Source of the DNA: Patescibacteria group bacterium
Lineage (GTDB): Bacteria; Patescibacteriota; Patescibacteriia; 2-01-FULL-39-33
Direction of reading: 5' to 3'
NCBI GenBank assembly: GCA_041662745.1
Contig: JBAZRV010000002.1
Span: 149,785 to 213,784, forward strand
DNA: 64,000 nucleotides
In this document: in pieces, positions 5,717-15,726 of the stretch
Numbering within the stretch: position 1 is the first letter of the stretch
Layout: the number at the start of each line of letters is the position of its first letter
The notes under the pieces: generated by a model
Database searches by the model: none
Told to the model about the DNA's origin: nothing
The model's input: the letters and a program-made list of their open reading frames with translations, nothing else
Made by a program: the position numbers and the translations under genes

Positions 5717-5793
5717 GGACATTTAGCTCAGTTGGTTAGAGCGTTCGATTCACATTCGAAAGGTCACAGGTTCGAATCCTGTAATGTCCACCA
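5717..5793 (+). tRNA. tRNA-Val (anticodon CAC), CCA encoded
   Basis: Acceptor GGACATT/AATGTCC. D-stem GCTC/GAGC. Anticodon stem TTCGA/TCGAA, loop TTCACAT, so anticodon CAC. T-arm ACAGG-TTCGAAT-CCTGT. Discriminator A, then CCA. Confidence 0.9.
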
Positions 5794-7248
5794 GTTCGGA
5801 AATGTCAAATTTTGTTGGTTATTTTGGCCGCCTTGGGCGACCAAATCATACGGAATTTTAAAGTCCAAAAGCAATTGGCGGTTTTGTAAAATGCGGTTCG
5901 ACCCGATATTTTTTAGAAATGCAGCCAGTTCCTTTTTCTCTGGGCTCTGCATTAGGATATTGGCTTGGTTGAGCGATAAAATAAACTCACGAGCCGGTTC
6001 GACCCAAGAAACGCCATTCTGTTCAAAATCTTGGATTTTCTCATTAAGTTCTAACTTTCGAGTTAGGATTTTTTGTTTTCTACTGGTATATTCTTCAGTC
6101 GTGATTGTCTCGCTTAAATAGACATCAAGCAGTTTTTCTAATCGCTGGTTAATATTTTCCAATTCGCTTTTAAGATTTTGAACAGTAATGATTGCCTCGC
6201 CCTTAGCCTGTTTTTCCTCTTTGTCTATCTCAAACAATATTTTCTCGGTTTCTTGAGTCGAAATAGAAACTTTTTGAAGATAATTTTTTATCTGATTTTC
6301 CAATTCTTCTTCGCGTAAAAAATGTTTTTCGAGGCAATTCTGCTTTTTCTTGGTACAACGATAATAATTATGGCCTTTCTGTGTCTCGGCCGTAATACTG
6401 CAACCGCAAGAACATTTCAGTAGTCCAACAAAGGGAAAATCATGCTTTTTAATCCTGCCTCGCTTCTTGCCTCTTTGTCGCATGACATTTTTTACTTCTT
6501 CAAAAAGTTTCTTAGAAATCAACGGCTCGTGAGTGCCCTCAAATACTTCTCCGTCATATTTCATTAGCCCAGTATAGAAAATGTTTTGCAAAAGCGTGAA
6601 GAAATAACTTGTCCTAACTCTTTTGCCGTGAAAGCCCGTCAAATGGTGTTCTTCGCAGAACCTCTCTAAATCGCCCAATGAATAATCCTCAGTGGCGTAG
6701 AGGTCAAATATCTGTCTAATTAGCGGGCCTTTAATAGGGTCGACATCTATACCTCTCGTTTTGGGATTATTCAAATAGCCAATCGGGGCAAGCGAAGGCC
6801 AAACGCCATTTCTAATCTTTTGCCTCATGCCTCGTTTTACATTTTCTCGCAAGTTGTCGATATAGTATTTGCTTTGGCCAAAAGCGATACTAAGCATGAA
6901 TAATCCTTGCGGAGTGGGCTCAAACCAAAAGGTGGGGAATTTGAGGGCTTTTATCGCTCCCTTATCAATCATATGGATTATCTTGCCACCATCAACGCTG
7001 TTTCTCGCCAATCTATCGGGGTGCCACGAAATAATACCACTTGCTTCGCCTTTTTCGATTCTGGCTAGCATTTCGCCGAATATTATTCGGCCTGGCTCTT
7101 TGGCAGTCTTGGCTTCCTGAAAGGAAGCGACAATTTCCAGTTTTTCTTTGGCGGCAAATTCTTTTAATTCAACTAATTGGGCTTCTATAGACAGTATCTG
7201 CCTATCTTCTTCCTCAGTACTCTTGCGAGCGTAAATAAAGTACTTCAT
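5764..7248 (-). CDS. Large serine recombinase (resolvase/invertase-type catalytic domain, recombinase domain, zinc ribbon and coiled coil)
   Basis: N-terminus YARKST (catalytic Ser) through SWHPDRLAR. A Cys-rich zinc-ribbon CSCGCS...YYRC. A long coiled-coil C-terminus. The reading frame runs through the 100-bp flank element into the tRNA-Val gene before reaching a stop, so the true C-terminus is uncertain. Confidence 0.85.
   Translation of the reverse strand: MKYFIYARKSTEEEDRQILSIEAQLVELKEFAAKEKLEIVASFQEAKTAKEPGRIIFGEMLARIEKGEASGIISWHPDRLARNSVDGGKIIHMIDKGAIKALKFPTFWFEPTPQGLFMLSIAFGQSKYYIDNLRENVKRGMRQKIRNGVWPSLAPIGYLNNPKTRGIDVDPIKGPLIRQIFDLYATEDYSLGDLERFCEEHHLTGFHGKRVRTSYFFTLLQNIFYTGLMKYDGEVFEGTHEPLISKKLFEEVKNVMRQRGKKRGRIKKHDFPFVGLLKCSCGCSITAETQKGHNYYRCTKKKQNCLEKHFLREEELENQIKNYLQKVSISTQETEKILFEIDKEEKQAKGEAIITVQNLKSELENINQRLEKLLDVYLSETITTEEYTSRKQKILTRKLELNEKIQDFEQNGVSWVEPAREFILSLNQANILMQSPEKKELAAFLKNIGSNRILQNRQLLLDFKIPYDLVAQGGQNNQQNLTFPNWWTLQDSNL
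5785..5886 (+). repeat. ~100-bp tRNA-3'-flank element (copy 1, forward): the CCACCA end of tRNA-Val plus about 95 bp
   Basis: Exact reverse-complement copy at 7307-7405. A related (~85% identical) element lies immediately 3' of tRNA-Lys at 46603-46690. Confidence 0.85.
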
Positions 7249-7306
7249 GATGAGATTAATTAATGATTAATAATTTAGAATTTAAAAATTTTCTTTTACC
7301 CTAATT

Positions 7307-7405
7307 CAAAACCGCCAATTGCTTTTGGACTTTAAAATTCCGTATGATTTGGTCGCCCAAGGCGGCCAAAATAACCAACAAAATTTGACATTTCCGAACT
7401 GGTGG
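7307..7405 (-). repeat. Inverted exact copy of the 100-bp tRNA-3'-flank element (copy 2), including an inverted CCACCA
   Basis: The reverse complement of 7307-7405 equals 5785-5886. Translation of both copies yields identical peptide strings in the ORF track (…HQFGNVKFCWLFWPPWATKSYGILKSKSNWRF). Confidence 0.85.
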
Positions 7406-7494
7406 AGGATAATGGACATAGCTCGAACGCATTTTCGGGCCGTCGCAGACGGCACTGATTTTCCCCCAAAAATTAAGCCCGAATTCTGAACTTT
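7400..7494 (-). repeat. Inverted exact copy of the terminal ~95 bp of AT-rich repeat-family copy A
   Basis: The reverse complement of 7400-7494 equals 8385-8479. Both copies carry the hairpin GCCGTCTGCGACGGC. The MRSSYVHYPPP peptide appears in two different ORFs of the track. Confidence 0.85.
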
Positions 7495-7598
7495 CAAGAC
7501 TGCCAATGAGCCAGAAAAAATATCGGGTCGAACCGCATTTTGGGTAAAAGAAAATTTTTAAATTCATTATTAACATAATTAATTAACTCATAAATAAT

Positions 7599-8264
7599 AT
7601 GAACCAAAAAACTTTAAACATTATTTTTGGAATCGTCATCGTTATTTTAGTTGTGGCTGTAGCCTATTTTGCTTTTGGTAAAAAAGCTGAACAGTTAAGT
7701 GATCAAAATGAAAACATTAATGTTCCTTTGGTGGACAACAATCAAAATTTACCAACAGCCGAACAGAATCAGAATGTTAATGAGCCAGCAGTGGCCGTGA
7801 ATACAAACCAGCCAGTGGTAAATCCCACTCCACCTACAAATCCGATGGCTGACTGGAAATCATACAATAGTAGCAGTTTTAGTATAAAGTATCCTACTTA
7901 TTTATCGCAAAAAGCCAAAGAAGATGAAGTTAAATCGCCAGTAACTTCGATAGTATCTTTTCAGGGTACTGCACCTCAAAGCAATTACGGTTCTCTGCTT
8001 TCAATTGAACAAATGGTCAATCAAGGCGGATTAACTTTAACTGATTGGACTAATGAAATAATTTCTCAATCAAAATGGATTAAGCAAGGTTCGGTAAAAA
8101 TATCCGGTCAAACTGCTTATATCCTGGTTTTACCAGAAACTGATGCTGGTGCGCGTTACTTTTTCTTGAGTAAAGACGGCCGAACAATGTTTGTTATGAC
8201 AATACAGCATTTTGATCAAACAACAATTGATTCAATTATTTCCTCATTCTTATTGAAAAAATAA
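7599..8264 (+). CDS. Hypothetical membrane-anchored/secreted protein with a Q/N/P-rich linker (cargo between the nested inverted repeats)
   Basis: N-terminal TM segment IIFGIVIVILVVAVAYFAF, a low-complexity N/Q-rich segment, and a C-terminal globular part. No recognisable family. Confidence 0.45.
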   Translation: MNQKTLNIIFGIVIVILVVAVAYFAFGKKAEQLSDQNENINVPLVDNNQNLPTAEQNQNVNEPAVAVNTNQPVVNPTPPTNPMADWKSYNSSSFSIKYPTYLSQKAKEDEVKSPVTSIVSFQGTAPQSNYGSLLSIEQMVNQGGLTLTDWTNEIISQSKWIKQGSVKISGQTAYILVLPETDAGARYFFLSKDGRTMFVMTIQHFDQTTIDSIISSFLLKK

Positions 8265-8281
8265 TATTCTGATTAAGAATT

Positions 8282-8479
8282 AAAAGAATTTGCCGCCAAA
8301 TCAATAAATTTTCAAACTCTGAATTATTTGAAAATTTATTGAGATGATTTTTAGTAAAAAATCATTGAAAAACTGGAAATTGTCAAAGTTCAGAATTCGG
8401 GCTTAATTTTTGGGGGAAAATCAGTGCCGTCTGCGACGGCCCGAAAATGCGTTCGAGCTATGTCCATTATCCTCCACCA
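8282..8479 (+). repeat. AT-rich non-coding repeat family, copy A (~200 bp), ending in CCACCA
   Basis: It shares AAAAGAATTTGCCGCCAAATC…CATTGAAAAACTGGAAATTG…hairpin…AAAATGCGTTCGAGCTAT with copies at 48447-48645 and 49256-49375. Confidence 0.75.
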
Positions 8480-10377: not shown

Positions 10378-10473
10378 AATTCTTTTTGATAAATATTGCC
10401 CACCTTAGTATTGGTTAAGGTGGGTTTATTTTGTTTAAAATTAGGTATTATTTATTGATTGTGGATAAACCCC

Positions 10474-10502
10474 TTGACAAAATATTAATATCGTGAGATA
10501 AT
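10474..10502 (+). promoter_or_regulatory. Sigma-70-like promoter upstream of the DGR target operon
   Basis: TTGACA at 10474-10479, a 17-bp spacer, and GATAAT at 10497-10502. A hairpin-containing 5' UTR and RBS GGAGA follow. Confidence 0.5.
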
Positions 10503-10586
10503 CTATGCAGTACGTTACATCTGGCAGGCCTTAGGCCGGAGAATAGTTCTCCGGTAGGAGGTAAGCCGCAACATGGGAGAAAGACC

Positions 10587-11273
10587 ATGAAAAAGAAGAG
10601 TGAGTTCTTGAGTGCCCTGGGTGTTATGTGGGAGATTTGGAAATCGCTGACGGACGAAATTTTGTCTTTAGGCGGCGATGACGAGGCGATTTGCCTTATT
10701 AAGGCGAATAATGATCTGCGAAGGCAAATGGCCGAATTGGTAATGGCTAAAGCGCGTGACATCAAAGACGCCGCCAAGCAAATCGTCTCGCCGTATCTGA
10801 CGTCTGTCCATGACCTCGTCATTGACTTCAGTCAGGATCTCGGGCAGATGATTGCCGCCGGCAAGTATGACTGGACCAACTCCGACATTACCGCCGAGCA
10901 TTTTCCTCTTAATGGAGCGGGTAAGCGGAAGGTCCGAGTCGAGTTGCTTCACTTCAATCAGTATTTCAAAAATGGCGATGAAGTGATTGCCAAACTGAAA
11001 GAAGTCAATAAGTGGCTGGCCCAGCAAGGAGCGAACTATCGCTATCGTTTCTCTCGCATTGAAGAGTTTTTGGCTTTGGGCGTGGTCCAACCCGGTCTGC
11101 AACGGCAATTTCCCATTGCCGCTCTGGGCTCAATTTGGCACCGTGCCGGCCTCCGCGACTTCGCTTACCTCTACGGGTTTGGTGCGGAGCGCGACCTGCG
11201 CCTGCGCTGTCTTGAGTTTGACTTCGGCGGCCCTTGGCGGTTCGCTGTTGTCCGCGAGCATGCCTGCCGGTAG
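10587..11273 (+). CDS. DGR target (variable) protein 1. The C-terminal ~41 codons form variable repeat VR1. The C-terminus ends …WRFAVVREHACR, reminiscent of C-type-lectin-fold DGR targets.
   Basis: Its C-terminal 123 bp match the template repeat, with substitutions only at TR adenines. It is paralogous to the downstream gene over the C-terminal ~130 aa and differs at the N-terminus. Confidence 0.8.
   Translation: MKKKSEFLSALGVMWEIWKSLTDEILSLGGDDEAICLIKANNDLRRQMAELVMAKARDIKDAAKQIVSPYLTSVHDLVIDFSQDLGQMIAAGKYDWTNSDITAEHFPLNGAGKRKVRVELLHFNQYFKNGDEVIAKLKEVNKWLAQQGANYRYRFSRIEEFLALGVVQPGLQRQFPIAALGSIWHRAGLRDFAYLYGFGAERDLRLRCLEFDFGGPWRFAVVREHACR
11133..11255 (+). repeat. DGR variable repeat VR1
   Basis: Aligned by eye to TR (12216-12339). 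About 22 mismatches, all at positions where TR has A (e.g. TR AAC codons correspond to VR CTC, TTT, GGC and so on). Three further non-A mismatches lie only in the last ~12 bp. Confidence 0.85.
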
Positions 11274-11284
11274 GCAGGCATGTT
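11257..11284 (+). other. IMH-like GC-rich segment and hairpin (CATGCCTGCC-GGTA-GGCAGGCATG) downstream of VR1. Probable DGR target-recognition/cruciform element.
   Basis: A perfect 10-bp stem with a 4-nt loop immediately 3' of VR1. The same ~60 bp (GTTGTCCGCGAGCATGCCTGCCGGTAGGCAGGCATGTTACCTTGATTCCTTGAACCTTGAC) follows VR2. It is absent after TR. Confidence 0.75.
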
Positions 11285-11333
11285 ACCTTGATTCCTTGAA
11301 CCTTGACACCAAAATCGGAAAAAGGAGGACATC

Positions 11334-11945
11334 ATGAGAACTGTAAGTAAAACCGGAAACAAAAAAGTCAGAACTGGAACTATCTCCGCCATCACTGGCG
11401 CGATAATCTGCCAAGGCGGAAAAGCCAAGGACTTGACTGCGATTGTCAGAAATGATGAATTGCTCAAACAATTGGCCACGACCATTATCGAACTGTCCAA
11501 AAAGATCATTCAAGTCATTGTTGACTGCACCATGTCGCTCGGCGATATGATCGACGCCGGCAAGTATGACTGGGTGAACTCGAACATCAACGCCAACAAC
11601 TTCCCGATCAGCAGGAAGGGTAAGAAGGTGGTCAGCATTGAACTCTGGCATCCCAACAGGTATTTTAATAACGGCGATGAAGTGATTGCCGAGCTGAAAA
11701 AAACTAAACCCGGCTATCGTTTTACTCAGATTGAAGAACTCCTGGCCTTAGGCGCGGTCCGACCCGATCTGCAACGGCAATTTCCCATTGCCGCTCTGGG
11801 CTCAATTTGGCACCCTGCCGGCGACCGCGACTTCGCTTTCCTCGACAGGCATGATGCGGAGCGCAACCTGTTCCTGGACTATCTTGAGCGTGACTTCAGC
11901 GACCGTTGGCGCTTTGCGGTTGTCCGCGAGCATGCCTGCCGGTAG
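11334..11945 (+). CDS. DGR target (variable) protein 2 (paralog of target 1). The C-terminal portion is VR2.
   Basis: The conserved segment GDMIDAGKYDW…WRFAVVREHACR is shared with target 1. Its C-terminal 122 bp match TR with A-specific differences only. Confidence 0.8.
   Translation: MRTVSKTGNKKVRTGTISAITGAIICQGGKAKDLTAIVRNDELLKQLATTIIELSKKIIQVIVDCTMSLGDMIDAGKYDWVNSNINANNFPISRKGKKVVSIELWHPNRYFNNGDEVIAELKKTKPGYRFTQIEELLALGAVRPDLQRQFPIAALGSIWHPAGDRDFAFLDRHDAERNLFLDYLERDFSDRWRFAVVREHACR
11805..11926 (+). repeat. DGR variable repeat VR2
   Basis: It differs from TR at about 17 positions, all TR adenines. The 3' end (TTGGCGCTTTGCGGTTGTCCGC) is identical to TR. Confidence 0.85.
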
Positions 11946-11956
11946 GCAGGCATGTT
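11929..11956 (+). other. IMH-like segment and hairpin downstream of VR2 (second copy)
   Basis: Identical to the 11257-11284 element. Confidence 0.75.
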
Positions 11957-11991
11957 ACCTTGATTCCTTGAACCTTGACCCCTTGAATTTT

Positions 11992-12030
11992 CCGCGCGAT
12001 GACCATAGTTATCGCGCGGCTTTTATTTTA
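11992..12030 (+). terminator. Rho-independent terminator after the target operon
   Basis: Stem CCGCGCGAT / ATCGCGCGG with a 10-nt loop, followed by TTTTATTTT. Confidence 0.6.
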
Positions 12031-12215
12031 TCTAATTTTTTACTATAATAGAGCCAAGGGTTAATACTCCCGCGGCCACGGTTTCGGGATACCCGCAAAA
12101 TAAACAAGATTGCTCGGCGTCTGATGTTGGCGGGTTTAAAGACCCCGAATAAAATACAGCCGGAAGATACGGCCTGGCTGTTCAACCGGCAGTGGCTACA
12201 GATGGCGTCAGACGA

Positions 12216-12339
12216 ATTTTGGCACCATGCCGGCAACCGCAACTTCGCTTACCTCAACAGGAATGATGCGAAGCGCAACCTGAACCTGAACTATCTTGAG
12301 AATGACTTCAACGACAATTGGCGCTTTGCGGTTGTCCGC
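12216..12339 (+). repeat. DGR template repeat (TR)
   Basis: Adenine-rich (Asn-codon-rich if translated: …AGNRNFAYLNRNDAKRNLNLNYLENDFNDNWRFAVV). It matches VR1 and VR2 except at A positions. It is followed by divergent sequence (TATCAATTTTG) instead of the IMH plus hairpin. A -10-like TATAAT sits at 12044-12049 upstream. Confidence 0.85.
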
Positions 12340-12772
12340 TATCAATTTTGTTTTCCGTCCTCGCTGTTGGCGGGGATGTTTTTTCCAAACCGATTTTCCA
12401 CGCATAGGCCAACCGTCCGATTTCCTCAATTTTAAGCGCCAAATCGCGGAATTTATTATCATTAAATAGCTTCATTTCCCAGCACAGCCGCAAATAAAAT
12501 TTCAGCAGATCGATTTTTTTTATTGATTTTATTGCCGGTTTTAATTTTTTGTCTTTCGGCAGATATTGGGCGGTGGCCAGTATTTCCAATAGTTCCAGAA
12601 ATATCTGATCCAGGCGGATGCCCAAGGTAAAGCGAGATGTTTTGGGAAAATTTTTTAACCAATCATGCCAAAGTTTGTAGGCAGCGATGGTTTTGCCCAG
12701 AACCAGTAAATTTCCCGTCGGGGGGGGGGATTTAAAGGATGAATTATGAGAAATAAGATCAGATTGAGTCAT
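12308..12772 (-). CDS. Avd-like accessory variability determinant (four-helix-bundle, 23S rRNA-IVS protein family)
   Basis: AAYKLWHDWLKNFPKTSRFTLGIRLDQIFLELLEILATAQ…LALKIEEIGRLAYAWKIGLE resembles the DGR Avd/IVS four-helix-bundle family. It is encoded on the opposite strand to RT. Its 3' end overlaps TR by ~30 bp and its 5' end overlaps the RT start by 27 bp. Confidence 0.6.
   Translation of the reverse strand: MTQSDLISHNSSFKSPPPTGNLLVLGKTIAAYKLWHDWLKNFPKTSRFTLGIRLDQIFLELLEILATAQYLPKDKKLKPAIKSIKKIDLLKFYLRLCWEMKLFNDNKFRDLALKIEEIGRLAYAWKIGLEKTSPPTARTENKIDSGQPQSANCR
12720..12729. repeat. Homopolymeric G10 (C10 on the minus strand) tract
   Basis: CGGGGGGGGGGA at 12719-12730. It encodes PPP in the avd N-terminus and lies 17-26 bp upstream of the RT start codon, adjacent to its RBS AAAGGA. 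Confidence 0.8.
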
Positions 12773-13804
12773 AGTTTTGACGAGATTATTTGTCTTGATA
12801 ATTTATTGGCGGCCTGGCGGGAATTCGTCCGTGGCAAAAGAGACAAGAAAGACGTGCAAGAATTCCAGTGGCAACTGATGGATAATCTTACAGTGCTTCA
12901 TTGGAATTTGGCAAGCGGCGATTATTGCCATGGCGGCTATCAGGCCTTTAAGATTTGTGATCCCAAATCGCGGCAAATCCATAAGGCGTCGGTTCGGGAC
13001 AGATTAGTCCATCATGCGATTTATCGGATTTTGTATCCGTTCTTTGATCGGACTTTCATCGCCGATTCTTATTCCTGCCGGCTGGGCAAGGGCACGCATA
13101 GGGCCTTGGCTCGGTTCAGTGAATTCGCTTACTCCGCCAGTCGGAACAATACCCGCACTTGCTGGGTTTTGAAGGGCGATATCAGGAAGTTTTTTGCCAA
13201 CATTAATCATGGGATATTGAAAGAGATTTTGGCCGAGTATATTCTAGATAAAAAGATTTTGGGGTTATTGGATGAAGTGATTGACAGCTTTCACTGTGTT
13301 AATGATAACCTGGATTCCTGCTTTCGCAGGAATGACAAGGGGAAGGATGAGGATGTCAGTGGTAGTAGAGGTCTGCCATTAGGCAATCTGACTTCGCAAC
13401 TTTTAGTTAATATTTACATGAATAGATTCGATCAATTTGTTAAGCATAAATTACAAGTCAAGTATTATATCCGCTATGCTGATGATTTCGTGATAATATC
13501 TAATGACAAAGGAGATCTAATTCGATTATTGGAGTTGATTAGCAATTATTTGAAACAAGAACTGAAATTGGAGCTTCATGATGATAAAATTTCCATTCGC
13601 ACTCTTAGTTCAAGCATTGATTTCTTGGGCTGGATTAATTTTCCCCGTCATCGTGTTTTACGGACAAAAACTAAAAGGAGGATGTTTAGGAGATTGCGGG
13701 ATAATTTTAGGTCAGAAGCGGTTAATTCGTATATCGGCCTGCTAAGTCATGGCAATGCTTATGGATTGCAAAAAAAGATTGCTAAATTAGCTGATTTTTG
13801 TTAG
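12746..13804 (+). CDS. DGR reverse transcriptase
   Basis: N-terminal FDEIICLDNLLAAWREFVRGKR. SVRDRLVHHAIYRIL. A catalytic IRYADDFVII (YADD) motif. RGLPLGNLTSQLLVNIYMN. 352 aa, typical of DGR RTs. Located adjacent to TR and avd. Confidence 0.9.
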   Translation: MRNKIRLSHSFDEIICLDNLLAAWREFVRGKRDKKDVQEFQWQLMDNLTVLHWNLASGDYCHGGYQAFKICDPKSRQIHKASVRDRLVHHAIYRILYPFFDRTFIADSYSCRLGKGTHRALARFSEFAYSASRNNTRTCWVLKGDIRKFFANINHGILKEILAEYILDKKILGLLDEVIDSFHCVNDNLDSCFRRNDKGKDEDVSGSRGLPLGNLTSQLLVNIYMNRFDQFVKHKLQVKYYIRYADDFVIISNDKGDLIRLLELISNYLKQELKLELHDDKISIRTLSSSIDFLGWINFPRHRVLRTKTKRRMFRRLRDNFRSEAVNSYIGLLSHGNAYGLQKKIAKLADFC

Positions 13805-13834: not shown

Positions 13835-14572
13835 ATGTCTTTTTTGGATAAAATTCTAAAATCCTCCGGCAATACCTTATACTATCCCGGCTGTCTGACC
13901 AAATACGTAGCCAAGGATATTTTTGATAATTACAAAAAACTGCTGGAAATGTGCGGCGAGGATTTTATCATTTTGCCGGACAAGGAAGTTTGTTGCGGTT
14001 CGCCGGCCATTAATGCCGGCTTTAAGGCTGAGGCCAAATCTTTAGTCGGGAAAAATCTAGAATTATTCAAACAGTATAATATCAAAAAAATCATTACCGG
14101 CTGTCCGGCCTGCTATCGCGTGTTCAGCCATGAATATCCCAAAATTCTATCAGATTCTTGGGGTATTGAGGTGGAACACATGACCACCTATCTGCTGGAA
14201 AAGTTAAAGTCCGGCAAACTTAAATTGCCAGAAGTTAAAATCAAAGCCGCCTATCACGATCCCTGCCATTTGGGCCGGCATAGCCGGATTTATGAGGAAC
14301 CGCGAGAGTTGCTCAGGGCCATAGGCGTAGACTTGCAAGAAATGGCGTTGAACCGCGAATATGCTTTCTGTTGCGGCGCGGGCGGGGGGGTGCAATCCAA
14401 TCATAAGGAGTTGGCGGAAAAGATCGCCACCGAGAGGGTGAGCCAAGCCGTGGCTACGACCGCCGAATACCTGGTAACGCCTTGTCCCATGTGCGCTTAT
14501 AATTTGCGCAATGGTACGGGCGATAAGATTAAAGTCGTGGAATTTTCGGAAGCGCTATTGGGTAAAATATAA
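13835..14572 (+). CDS. Cysteine-rich (CCG-domain) Fe-S oxidoreductase subunit, LutA/GlcF-C-terminal/HdrB-like
   Basis: Two CCG-type cysteine clusters (YYPGC…CCGSPAINAGF…TGCPACY and PCH…FCCGAGGG…PCPMC). Confidence 0.65.
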   Translation: MSFLDKILKSSGNTLYYPGCLTKYVAKDIFDNYKKLLEMCGEDFIILPDKEVCCGSPAINAGFKAEAKSLVGKNLELFKQYNIKKIITGCPACYRVFSHEYPKILSDSWGIEVEHMTTYLLEKLKSGKLKLPEVKIKAAYHDPCHLGRHSRIYEEPRELLRAIGVDLQEMALNREYAFCCGAGGGVQSNHKELAEKIATERVSQAVATTAEYLVTPCPMCAYNLRNGTGDKIKVVEFSEALLGKI

Positions 14573-14574
14573 TT

Positions 14575-15726
14575 ATGAATCGTGATTTTGTTTACAATTA
14601 TCTTAGCAAGCGAGTTGCCGCCTTAAACCGCGAAGATCAGGAAAAGCTGCGCGATGAGATTTTTGAATTGAAAAAAAAGGCGGCAGCCAGGTTACCCGAG
14701 TTGGTGGAAAAGGCTAAAAATAAATTGGAGCAAGCCGGCGCCAAAGTTTATGTAGTCAAAGATAATGCCGCCGCCACGGAGCTGATTAAAGAATTAGCCG
14801 GTTCCAGTTTGGCGGTTAAAAGCAAATCCAACACCTTGGATAAATTGGGATTAAAAGGAATTTTAGGGGATAAATTGACTGAAACGGATTTGGGCGCCTA
14901 TATCGTCAGCCAAATCGGCGGCGACTCGGATCACCCGGTTTTGCCGGCCATTGATTTGTCAGCCGAAGAAATCGTTGCCAAATTCAAAGAACGGGGAATT
15001 GATCTGCCGGCCAAGCCCAAGGAATTGGTGGATAAATTAAAAAAAATCATTAAGGAAAAGATTTTATCCGCTGAAGTCGGATTGACCGGCGCTAACGCCG
15101 TTACCGCCGACGGGCAAATCATGCTGCTGGAGAACGAAGGCAATATTTCATTGGTCACTCGTTTACCCGGGTTGCATATTGCCGTCGCCAAGGTGGAAAA
15201 AGTCGTTGCTTCTTACGAGGATGCGATTAAAATCGCCAAGGCCGCCGCCGTTTGGGGGACCGGCCAGAGTTGGACGTCTTACGTGTCTTTTATCGGCGGA
15301 CCGTCGCAAACCGCAGATATTGAGAATGAGTTGGTTACTGGAGTGCAGGGAGCGCAGAAGTTAATCCTGATTTTAATTGAAGGACAATCCTATCAAAAAA
15401 TTGGCACGGAGTTGGAGAGTATGCTATACTGTATACATTGCGGAGCTTGTTATAATCTTTGCCCGTCCTGGAATCTGACCTTGACCATGCCTAAAGTCAG
15501 CAGTGATCAGACCAATTTTACTTGCACTCTGTGTCAGAATTGCACCCTTAATTGCCCGGCCAGGATAGATTGGCAGAATATTACCAGGATTTATCGTGAG
15601 AAATTTACCGCCGAAGGCAAGATTAGCGCAGTTAATGCCAAAATGCTTAAGAATTTAAGGCAATATGGCAACCCTTTCGGCGAAGTTTCAGAGGGCGTCG
15701 CGCCGGATGAATTATTTTGCTGTTAA
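14575..15726 (+). CDS. LUD-domain protein with a C-terminal 4Fe-4S ferredoxin-type domain (LutB-like)
   Basis: CIHCGACYNLCP and CTLCQNCTLNCP ferredoxin motifs, with an N-terminal LUD/DUF162-like region. Adjacent to the LutA-like gene. Confidence 0.6.
   Translation: MNRDFVYNYLSKRVAALNREDQEKLRDEIFELKKKAAARLPELVEKAKNKLEQAGAKVYVVKDNAAATELIKELAGSSLAVKSKSNTLDKLGLKGILGDKLTETDLGAYIVSQIGGDSDHPVLPAIDLSAEEIVAKFKERGIDLPAKPKELVDKLKKIIKEKILSAEVGLTGANAVTADGQIMLLENEGNISLVTRLPGLHIAVAKVEKVVASYEDAIKIAKAAAVWGTGQSWTSYVSFIGGPSQTADIENELVTGVQGAQKLILILIEGQSYQKIGTELESMLYCIHCGACYNLCPSWNLTLTMPKVSSDQTNFTCTLCQNCTLNCPARIDWQNITRIYREKFTAEGKISAVNAKMLKNLRQYGNPFGEVSEGVAPDELFCC

Follow-up and report, generated by a model that had tools for sequence, protein, structure and literature searches.

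The stretch of DNA analysed here (the window) comprises 64,000 nucleotides of a Patescibacteria group bacterium (GenBank assembly GCA_041662745.1, contig JBAZRV010000002.1, positions 149,785 to 213,784), and all positions below refer to it. It carries what is very probably a complete chromosomal diversity-generating retroelement (DGR) of the Patescibacteria, or candidate phyla radiation (CPR), in the TR-(avd)-RT layout known as B3. The element consists of a template repeat (TR), the accessory gene avd, a gene for a reverse transcriptase (RT), and two adjacent target genes, VP1 and VP2, each of which has a variable repeat (VR1 and VR2) at its 3′ end. A first reading made from the letters of the window (the sequence-only reading) had proposed such an element, and the DGR interpretation was borne out in each part that was open to testing. 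The gene positions given there were confirmed by the list of open reading frames (ORFs), which contains VP1, VP2, a minus-strand avd, and the RT.

Adenine-Specific Variation of Two Target Genes

Repeat finding revealed a family of three copies of approximately 127 nt, located at 11134, 11806, and 12218. TR, VR1, and VR2 align without gaps over 122 nt each (Table 1). The repeats described in the sequence-only reading (TR at 12216-12339, VR1 at 11133-11255, and VR2 at 11805-11926) are real, but their ends were off by 1-2 bases. A TR start at 12216 would add one matching A and one non-A mismatch common to both VRs, position 12217 being T in TR and A in VR1 and VR2.

VR1 differs from TR at 26 positions, 23 of which are TR adenines (12 A>G, 6 A>T, and 5 A>C). 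In VR2 all 15 mismatches fall on TR adenines, with no non-A mismatch over the 122 nt. As TR contains 31 adenines in 122 nt, the hypergeometric probability of this bias is 4e-15 for VR1 and 5e-11 for VR2. Counts made by eye had given about 22 and 17 adenine sites, close to the computed 23 and 15. An equal spread of mismatches over the four bases, which had been named as grounds for abandoning the proposal, was looked for and the mismatches were found to be adenine-specific instead. The three other changes in VR1 are located, as had been noted, only at its 3′ extreme, at TR positions 12324, 12327, and 12330. All three are synonymous changes at third codon positions, confined to the last 16 nt of the repeat. 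They lie inside an A-free 3′ segment of 21 nt in which TR and VR2 are identical. An A-free, GC-rich 3′ segment of this kind, together with an inverted repeat specific to the VRs, would correspond to the initiation of mutagenic homing (IMH / IMH*) arrangement of DGRs. No further copy of the TR 3′ segment was found in the 64-kb window.

In the reading frame of the VRs, TR adenines occupy codon position 1 (12 cases) or position 2 (19 cases) and never position 3. The richness of TR in asparagine codons, also part of the initial proposal, amounts to 7 AAC and 3 AAT. Among the 20 mutable codons only one (AAG) can turn into a stop codon, and the encoded repertoire comprises approximately 10^18 peptide variants. 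Every A-site codon change present in VR1 and VR2 alters the amino acid.

Relatives and Homing History

At least 8000 relatives of the RT were found at E <= 1e-30, many of them about 60% identical and belonging to Moran-, Jorgensen-, Kaiser-, Azam-, and Buchananbacteria. The 19 related loci that were examined in detail have the same layout and A-biased TR/VR pairs. Among CPR DGRs, 90% have the B3 layout (Wu et al., 2018; PMC5758913), and a Patescibacteria-restricted DGR clade (DGR clade 2) has been described (Roux et al., 2021; PMC8144416). From this layout and the at least 8000 related RTs it follows that the element belongs to a kind already known, its architecture and RT clade having been catalogued in CPR bacteria in these two studies.

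To trace the history of homing, non-A sites at which the TRs differ were compared between the window and its two nearest relatives, L003 and L007 (the remote target of L007, on L002, being included). VRs were found to match the TR base of their own genome in 108 of 116 cells. Four cells carry the base of the other genome, and as all of these lie in the last 16 nt, the 3′ limit of information transfer falls between 12318 and 12324. Since VRs track their own TR, the comparison indicates past homing, with TR-to-VR transfer continuing after these lineages split.

It is unlikely that the element is instead a relic in which homing has stopped, the VRs being a frozen record of past diversification. 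A relic would account for the three non-A mismatches of VR1, which lie in the IMH-like 3′ recognition segment and might lower the use of this target, and for the clear degeneration of some targets in relatives (for example L002 4816-4943). It would also fit the uniformity of the consensus VRs, which are identical across 3-4 assemblies in two related populations, while the sole other assembly of the strain (L001) is identical to the window. Together with the non-A mismatches of VR1 and with the score of the avd product against the NCBIfam model DivGenRetAVD (51.9 bits, E 7.5e-14), which is below the curated cut-off of 80, this uniformity weighs against our interpretation. On the other hand, none of the ORFs of the element (RT, avd, VP1, and VP2) is disrupted, and avd is in frame in the window. 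The catalytic and SQ motifs of the RT are preserved, VR2 is free of non-A mismatches, and where non-A sites distinguish the TR from those of its closest relatives, the VRs side with their own TR. A search for strain variants, made in one metagenome scan with an invariant 21-mer 5′ of the VRs, returned only a different, related locus (L008).

In the Buchananbacteria relative (L002 4272-5618) a tandem target pair was found at the syntenic position, with no TR, avd, or RT there. One VR of this pair has 23 mismatches, 22 of them at A, to a TR that belongs to a DGR elsewhere in the metagenome-assembled genome (MAG), on a different contig (L007 6986-7112). The second target, whose VR is the degenerate one mentioned above, has mismatches at all four bases and an indel. 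This relative is a case of remote targeting plus target loss. A further remote target was seen in another MAG. Moreover, about 30 of 46 species-representative loci with VP homologues (L009-L054) have no RT within 4 kb, and the family thus includes many remote or non-diversified members.

Reverse Transcriptase and Avd

The RT matches Pfam RVT_1 (E 2.9e-27), and its best solved relative is bRT of Bordetella phage BPP-1 (8ub7, E 5.9e-37); the best group II intron RT reached 4.5e-18. LGNLTSQ of the RT aligns with IGSLTSQ of bRT, and YADD with YMDD. These motifs and the best PDB match would place the RT in the DGR clade, which is characterized by [LIV]GxxxSQ in RT motif 4 and YxDD. The YADD box and DGR-type motifs noticed at the outset are accordingly present in an enzyme closest to bRT.

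The RT is very improbably that of a group II intron, retron, or defence system, with the repeats as an unrelated decayed gene fragment. The top NCBIfam model was group_II_RT_mat, followed by weaker Drt and retron matches (51.4 bits for the retron model, cut-off 235). Yet the 139.6 bits of group_II_RT_mat are far under its cut-off of 300, and no DGR-RT model was returned to compete in that scan. Moreover, bRT leads the other solved relatives by 19 orders of magnitude, Rfam shows neither group II intron RNA nor retron RNA at the locus, an Avd gene adjoins the RT, and the mismatches are adenine-specific. An RT from either of the first two groups had been listed in the sequence-only reading as evidence that would count against a DGR; the best match to bRT and the scores under the cut-offs point the other way.

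The gene beside the RT had been called Avd-like, and the profile search agrees: its product matches Pfam bAvd with 44.4 bits (cut-off 40, E 2.7e-11). The protein is basic (pI 9.7).

Target Proteins VP1 and VP2

VP1 and VP2 are 48% identical over 209 columns, nearly their full length. By our count from the alignment, identity rises from approximately 18% over columns 1-60 to approximately 60% in the C-terminal region. The proposal of two adjacent targets with different N-terminal halves therefore stands as to the two targets, but the halves are not unrelated. A 270-nt stretch common to both genes is 86% identical. That the three repeats are ordinary paralogous sequence, shaped by normal mutation or gene conversion, is suggested by this tandem paralogy but is exceedingly improbable, as ordinary divergence would be expected over all four bases and mainly at third codon positions, whereas 38 of the 41 VR differences lie on TR adenines, none of the 38 at a third position, and the A-rich copy is the non-coding one beside the RT.

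The C-terminal domain of the targets gave a confident fold prediction (predicted local distance difference test, pLDDT, of 92). Its structural neighbours are proteins with the C-type-lectin (CLec) or formylglycine-generating enzyme (FGE) fold, including the DGR targets TvpA and Mtd. The C-type-lectin-like ending recognized in the initial reading is in line with this model, and the VR is predicted to lie in the C-terminal part of a CLec/FGE-type fold. No family match for VP1 or VP2 was found in Pfam or NCBIfam, no sequence match in PDB, and no significant match to family profiles of FGE-sulfatase, DUF1566, or Mtd. Neither protein has a hydrophobic segment (the KD19 maximum of VP1 is 0.91), and no signal peptide or membrane segment was seen.

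VP2 has an identical counterpart in a MAG labelled 'Patescibacteria group bacterium'. About 100 homologues of VP2 were found, and wherever the source names an organism, the names are of Patescibacteria lineages only. The target family, in other respects restricted to Patescibacteria, also occurs in records titled 'uncultured Gammaproteobacteria bacterium' (L010, L014, L016, L022, L025, L033, L037, L044, L047, L049, and L051), and L014 and L022 contain a DGR cassette besides the target gene. These titles look like placeholder or mistaken taxonomy.

Organization of the Locus

The features of the locus are collected in Table 1. The promoter-like site upstream of VP1 has 11 of 12 consensus matches and an extended -10 element, and is the probable start of a VP1-VP2 transcript. 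The avd gene is convergent with TR, its final 32 nt overlapping the repeat, and divergent from the RT gene, with which it shares the first 27 nt of both genes.

Table 1. Features of the retroelement and its targets, with positions in the window.
Feature	Position	Strand	Basis or remark
Promoter-like site upstream of VP1	10474..10502	+	TTGACA, 17 nt, TG-GATAAT; consensus match only
VP1, target gene 1, 228 aa, VR1 at 3′ end	10587..11273	+	ORF
VR1, variable repeat of VP1	11134..11255	+	gapless alignment to TR
GC-rich hairpin after VR1, includes VP1 stop codon	11259..11282	+	
Tandem CCTTGA repeats 3′ of VP1, 3 units of 7-8 nt	11286..11306	+	
VP2, target gene 2, 203 aa, VR2 at 3′ end	11334..11945	+	ORF
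VR2, variable repeat of VP2	11806..11927	+	gapless alignment to TR
GC-rich hairpin after VR2	11931..11954	+	identical to post-VR1 hairpin
Tandem CCTTGA repeats 3′ of VP2, 4 units of 7-8 nt	11958..11986	+	
Intrinsic-terminator-like hairpin and T-run that would close the target-gene transcript	11992..12029	+	12-pair stem, 8 GC pairs, then CTTTTATTTT
Structured RNA domain directly 5′ of TR	12100..12218	+	covariation
TR, template repeat, 122 nt	12218..12339	+	gapless alignment; start arguably 12216
Terminator-like stem-loop and T6, 17 nt after TR	12356..12384	+	
avd accessory gene, 154 aa	12308..12772	-	Pfam bAvd
G10 homopolymer (C10 in avd sense)	12720..12729	strand-neutral	inside avd 5′ end
DGR reverse transcriptase, 352 aa	12746..13804	+	Pfam RVT_1, PDB match, motifs

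RNA Elements Around the Template Repeat

Between a purine-rich strand upstream and TR lies a 97-nt domain of three helices (12118-12214): P1 (12118-12128/12204-12214), P2 (12132-12135/12142-12145), and P3 (12159-12167/12182-12190). In an alignment of 19 loci, compensatory changes were found in 25 of its 27 pairs, and 95.5% of cells are paired, as opposed to 35-44% in controls with slid partners; none of 500 shuffles attained the observed values. A covariance model built from 18 loci recovered the domain in held-out B3-type loci (L012, L018, L020, and L063-L070). It gave no match in 24 other IMG/VR DGR loci (L071-L094), where Avd, when detected, is on the RT strand, and no second match elsewhere in the window. 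The TR region has no Rfam match, even at E <= 10.

The purine-rich strand (12105-12117), approximately 100 nt upstream of TR, pairs with a pyrimidine-rich strand (12338-12349) just 3′ of it; in 12 of 17 loci this duplex outscores at least 97% of shuffles. Of 15 related loci that were folded, most show a hairpin and then a T-rich stretch just past TR, with differing stem sequences. An 'Avd-binding stem-loop' and a 'cPRT Stop' duplex were described for BPP-1 by Handa et al. (2024, bioRxiv; 10.1101/2023.10.23.563531), with predictions of both in 207 of 278 DGRs. The duplex and the post-TR hairpin are similar in form to these elements: the stem-loop of Table 1 is probably the counterpart of the former, and the TR-flanking duplex resembles the upstream/downstream pairing of the latter, to which it would be equivalent by analogy. 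We infer that the 5′ RNA domain serves the scaffold role of the BPP-1 3′ spacer RNA, possibly as its permuted counterpart. It would have shifted to the 5′ side because avd takes up the 3′ side.

In this region (12308-12384) the avd mRNA on the minus strand and the TR RNA on the plus strand converge and would be complementary over approximately 75 nt, a stretch that takes in the stem-loop and the final 32 nt of TR. Opposite the stem-loop, the minus strand encodes the conserved C-terminal 'EKTSPP' of Avd, so that protein and RNA constraints overlap.

Hairpins and Repeats 3′ of the Targets

Both VRs are followed, 4 nt past the VR/TR homology, by the same hairpin of 10 bp plus a G-T pair with a 4-nt loop. 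As DNA, it has a folding energy of -16.1 kcal/mol after VR1 (z -5.5) and -18.2 kcal/mol after VR2 (z -5.7). This GC-rich hairpin is absent 3′ of TR. Further downstream are the tandem CCTTGA repeats. Clusters of the motif YCTTGR (at least 3 within 45 nt) occur on the plus strand of the window only after VP1 and after VP2, and the 100-nt flanks downstream of 55 VP homologues show an 8-fold enrichment of the repeat motif. In 23 DGR-linked flanks, which include three unrelated target families, the top 5-mers were CCCTT (26-fold) and CCTTG (22-fold), with copies most often 8 nt apart. Orphan VP genes with CTTGR repeats gave mixed results as remote targets: L050 qualifies, with 18 of 20 mismatches at A, and L028 does not. 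It was hypothesized that the CCCTTGA repeats mark the recipient site. Readings of the repeats as G-quadruplexes, rut sites, or promoters each misfit some loci, as judged from the sequences alone.

The G/C Homopolymer in avd

The G10 run is the sole G/C run of 8 or more in the window. Read in the avd direction, it specifies PPP among the earliest codons of that gene, and it precedes the RT ATG by 17-26 nt. Of 19 related chromosomal loci, 18 have 6-15 consecutive G at the corresponding site. A run is present in only one of six distinct IMG/VR loci of the same architecture; in loci lacking it, the Avd ATG lies a few codons ahead of the conserved core. In the 18 loci the Avd core is in frame with the ATG upstream of the run in 6, this window included, off by one in 8, and off by two in 4. 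The core ORF is open in all 18, though out of frame with that ATG in 12.

Out-of-frame run lengths are identical in 3-4 independent assemblies of two populations, which disfavours assembly error. No variation in run length or in the VRs within a population was found in three Jorgensenbacteria and four Kaiserbacteria assemblies, and phase variation at the DNA level is therefore without direct support. The homopolymer could serve phase variation, permit slippage during transcription or +1 slippage of the ribosome on CCC-C, or play a part in the RT 5′ untranslated region. In a Kaiserbacteria locus (L059 3501-3600) the RT as called begins upstream of the G10 run and includes it in its reading frame, and avd, on the complementary strand, is out of frame; altering the run length would then act on the two genes in opposite ways.

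From these observations a broader and tentative proposal can be drawn, which we hold to be rather less probable than not: chromosomal Patescibacteria DGRs may have a built-in frameshift gate on their own mutagenesis in the form of the C6-C15 run of avd, with the 5′ RNA domain and the VR-flank repeats as additional cis elements. Avd, and hence homing, would be made only after slippage at the DNA, transcriptional, or ribosomal level. Full-text literature searches for DGRs with a homopolymer, frameshift, or phase variation returned nothing relevant. Likewise, no mention of CCTTGA-type repeats, the 5′ RNA domain, or the avd homopolymer was found in the DGR papers that were read.

Neighbouring Genes

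Upstream of the element, nested inverted repeats (5787-8479) surround a gene for a large serine recombinase (5764-7248, minus strand; Resolvase/Recombinase/Zn_ribbon). The inverted pairs are 5787-5886/7307-7406 (100 nt, 100%), 5888-5914/7515-7541 (27 nt, 100%), and 7400-7505/8374-8479 (106 nt, 95%). A tRNA-Val gene adjoins the first arm with its 3′ end, and the last arm extends into the start of a ZIP transporter gene. The whole block, missing from the syntenic relative L002, may represent an integrated element or several invertible segments. Directly after the RT (13835-15726), and likewise in L003, are genes for a CCG-domain protein and a LUD-domain/4Fe-4S protein of the lactate-utilisation type. 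These are absent from the syntenic L002 site and may therefore be gained or lost together with the DGR cassette.

Proposed Mechanism and Known Systems

In the proposed mechanism, a plus-strand non-coding RNA would comprise the structured 5′ domain (12100-12215), the 122-nt TR, the strand that pairs with the leader, and the stem-loop with its U-tract. By analogy with BPP-1, the RT and the basic Avd would copy TR into cDNA, misincorporating opposite template adenines. The cDNA would then replace the homologous VR at the 3′ ends of VP1 and VP2, recoding up to 20 codons of the C-type-lectin-like domain, with approximately 10^18 possible peptides for each target. Recipient (VR) and donor (TR) would be told apart by the A-free 3′ segment of the repeat together with the hairpin and CCTTGA repeats found next to VRs only. 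The analysis itself shows the component parts, the adenine specificity, the affiliation of RT and Avd, the predicted fold, the conservation of the RNA structure, and TR-to-VR transfer in the past; that the element is active today, where its transcripts end, and what the flanking elements do are inferences.

The element is most similar to the B3 DGRs of CPR bacteria, which it resembles in gene order, strands, RT clade, chromosomal site, the presence of more than one target, and small targets lacking known domains; no essential difference was found. Neither the element nor its target family was found by name in a limited search of the accessible literature. Adenine-specific transfer from TR to VR, an Avd protein, an SQ-motif RT, and a GC-rich hairpin 3′ of the VR are common to the element and the BPP-1 DGR (mtd-avd-TR-brt), and in both the VR is C-terminal in a CLec-type fold (predicted here). 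Unlike in BPP-1, avd lies between TR and RT and is encoded on the opposite strand, a long TR-RT spacer RNA is lacking, and the large structured RNA is 5′ rather than 3′ of TR. Moreover, there are two targets, the host is cellular rather than a phage, and the targets have neither a signal peptide nor a tail-fibre context. TvpA of Treponema denticola and LdtA of Legionella are lipoproteins or surface proteins with an FGE-sulfatase-type signature, whereas VP1 and VP2 have no Pfam family, signal peptide, or membrane segment.

Significance

As a DGR, the element is one more case from a clade abundant in CPR bacteria and changes little. Its value is that of a clean and complete reference: two targets lie side by side, every mismatch of VR2 is at a TR adenine, avd is in frame, and close relatives document TR-to-VR transfer over evolutionary time. 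The target family, with approximately 100 members, no known domain, and no secretion signal, is a candidate for asking what CPR cells diversify intracellularly. The clade-wide RNA domain 5′ of TR, the 8-nt repeats flanking the VRs, and the avd homopolymer are the only parts that might be new. If confirmed, these three features would bear on how the cDNA finds and replaces the VR, and on how cells restrain a hypermutator.

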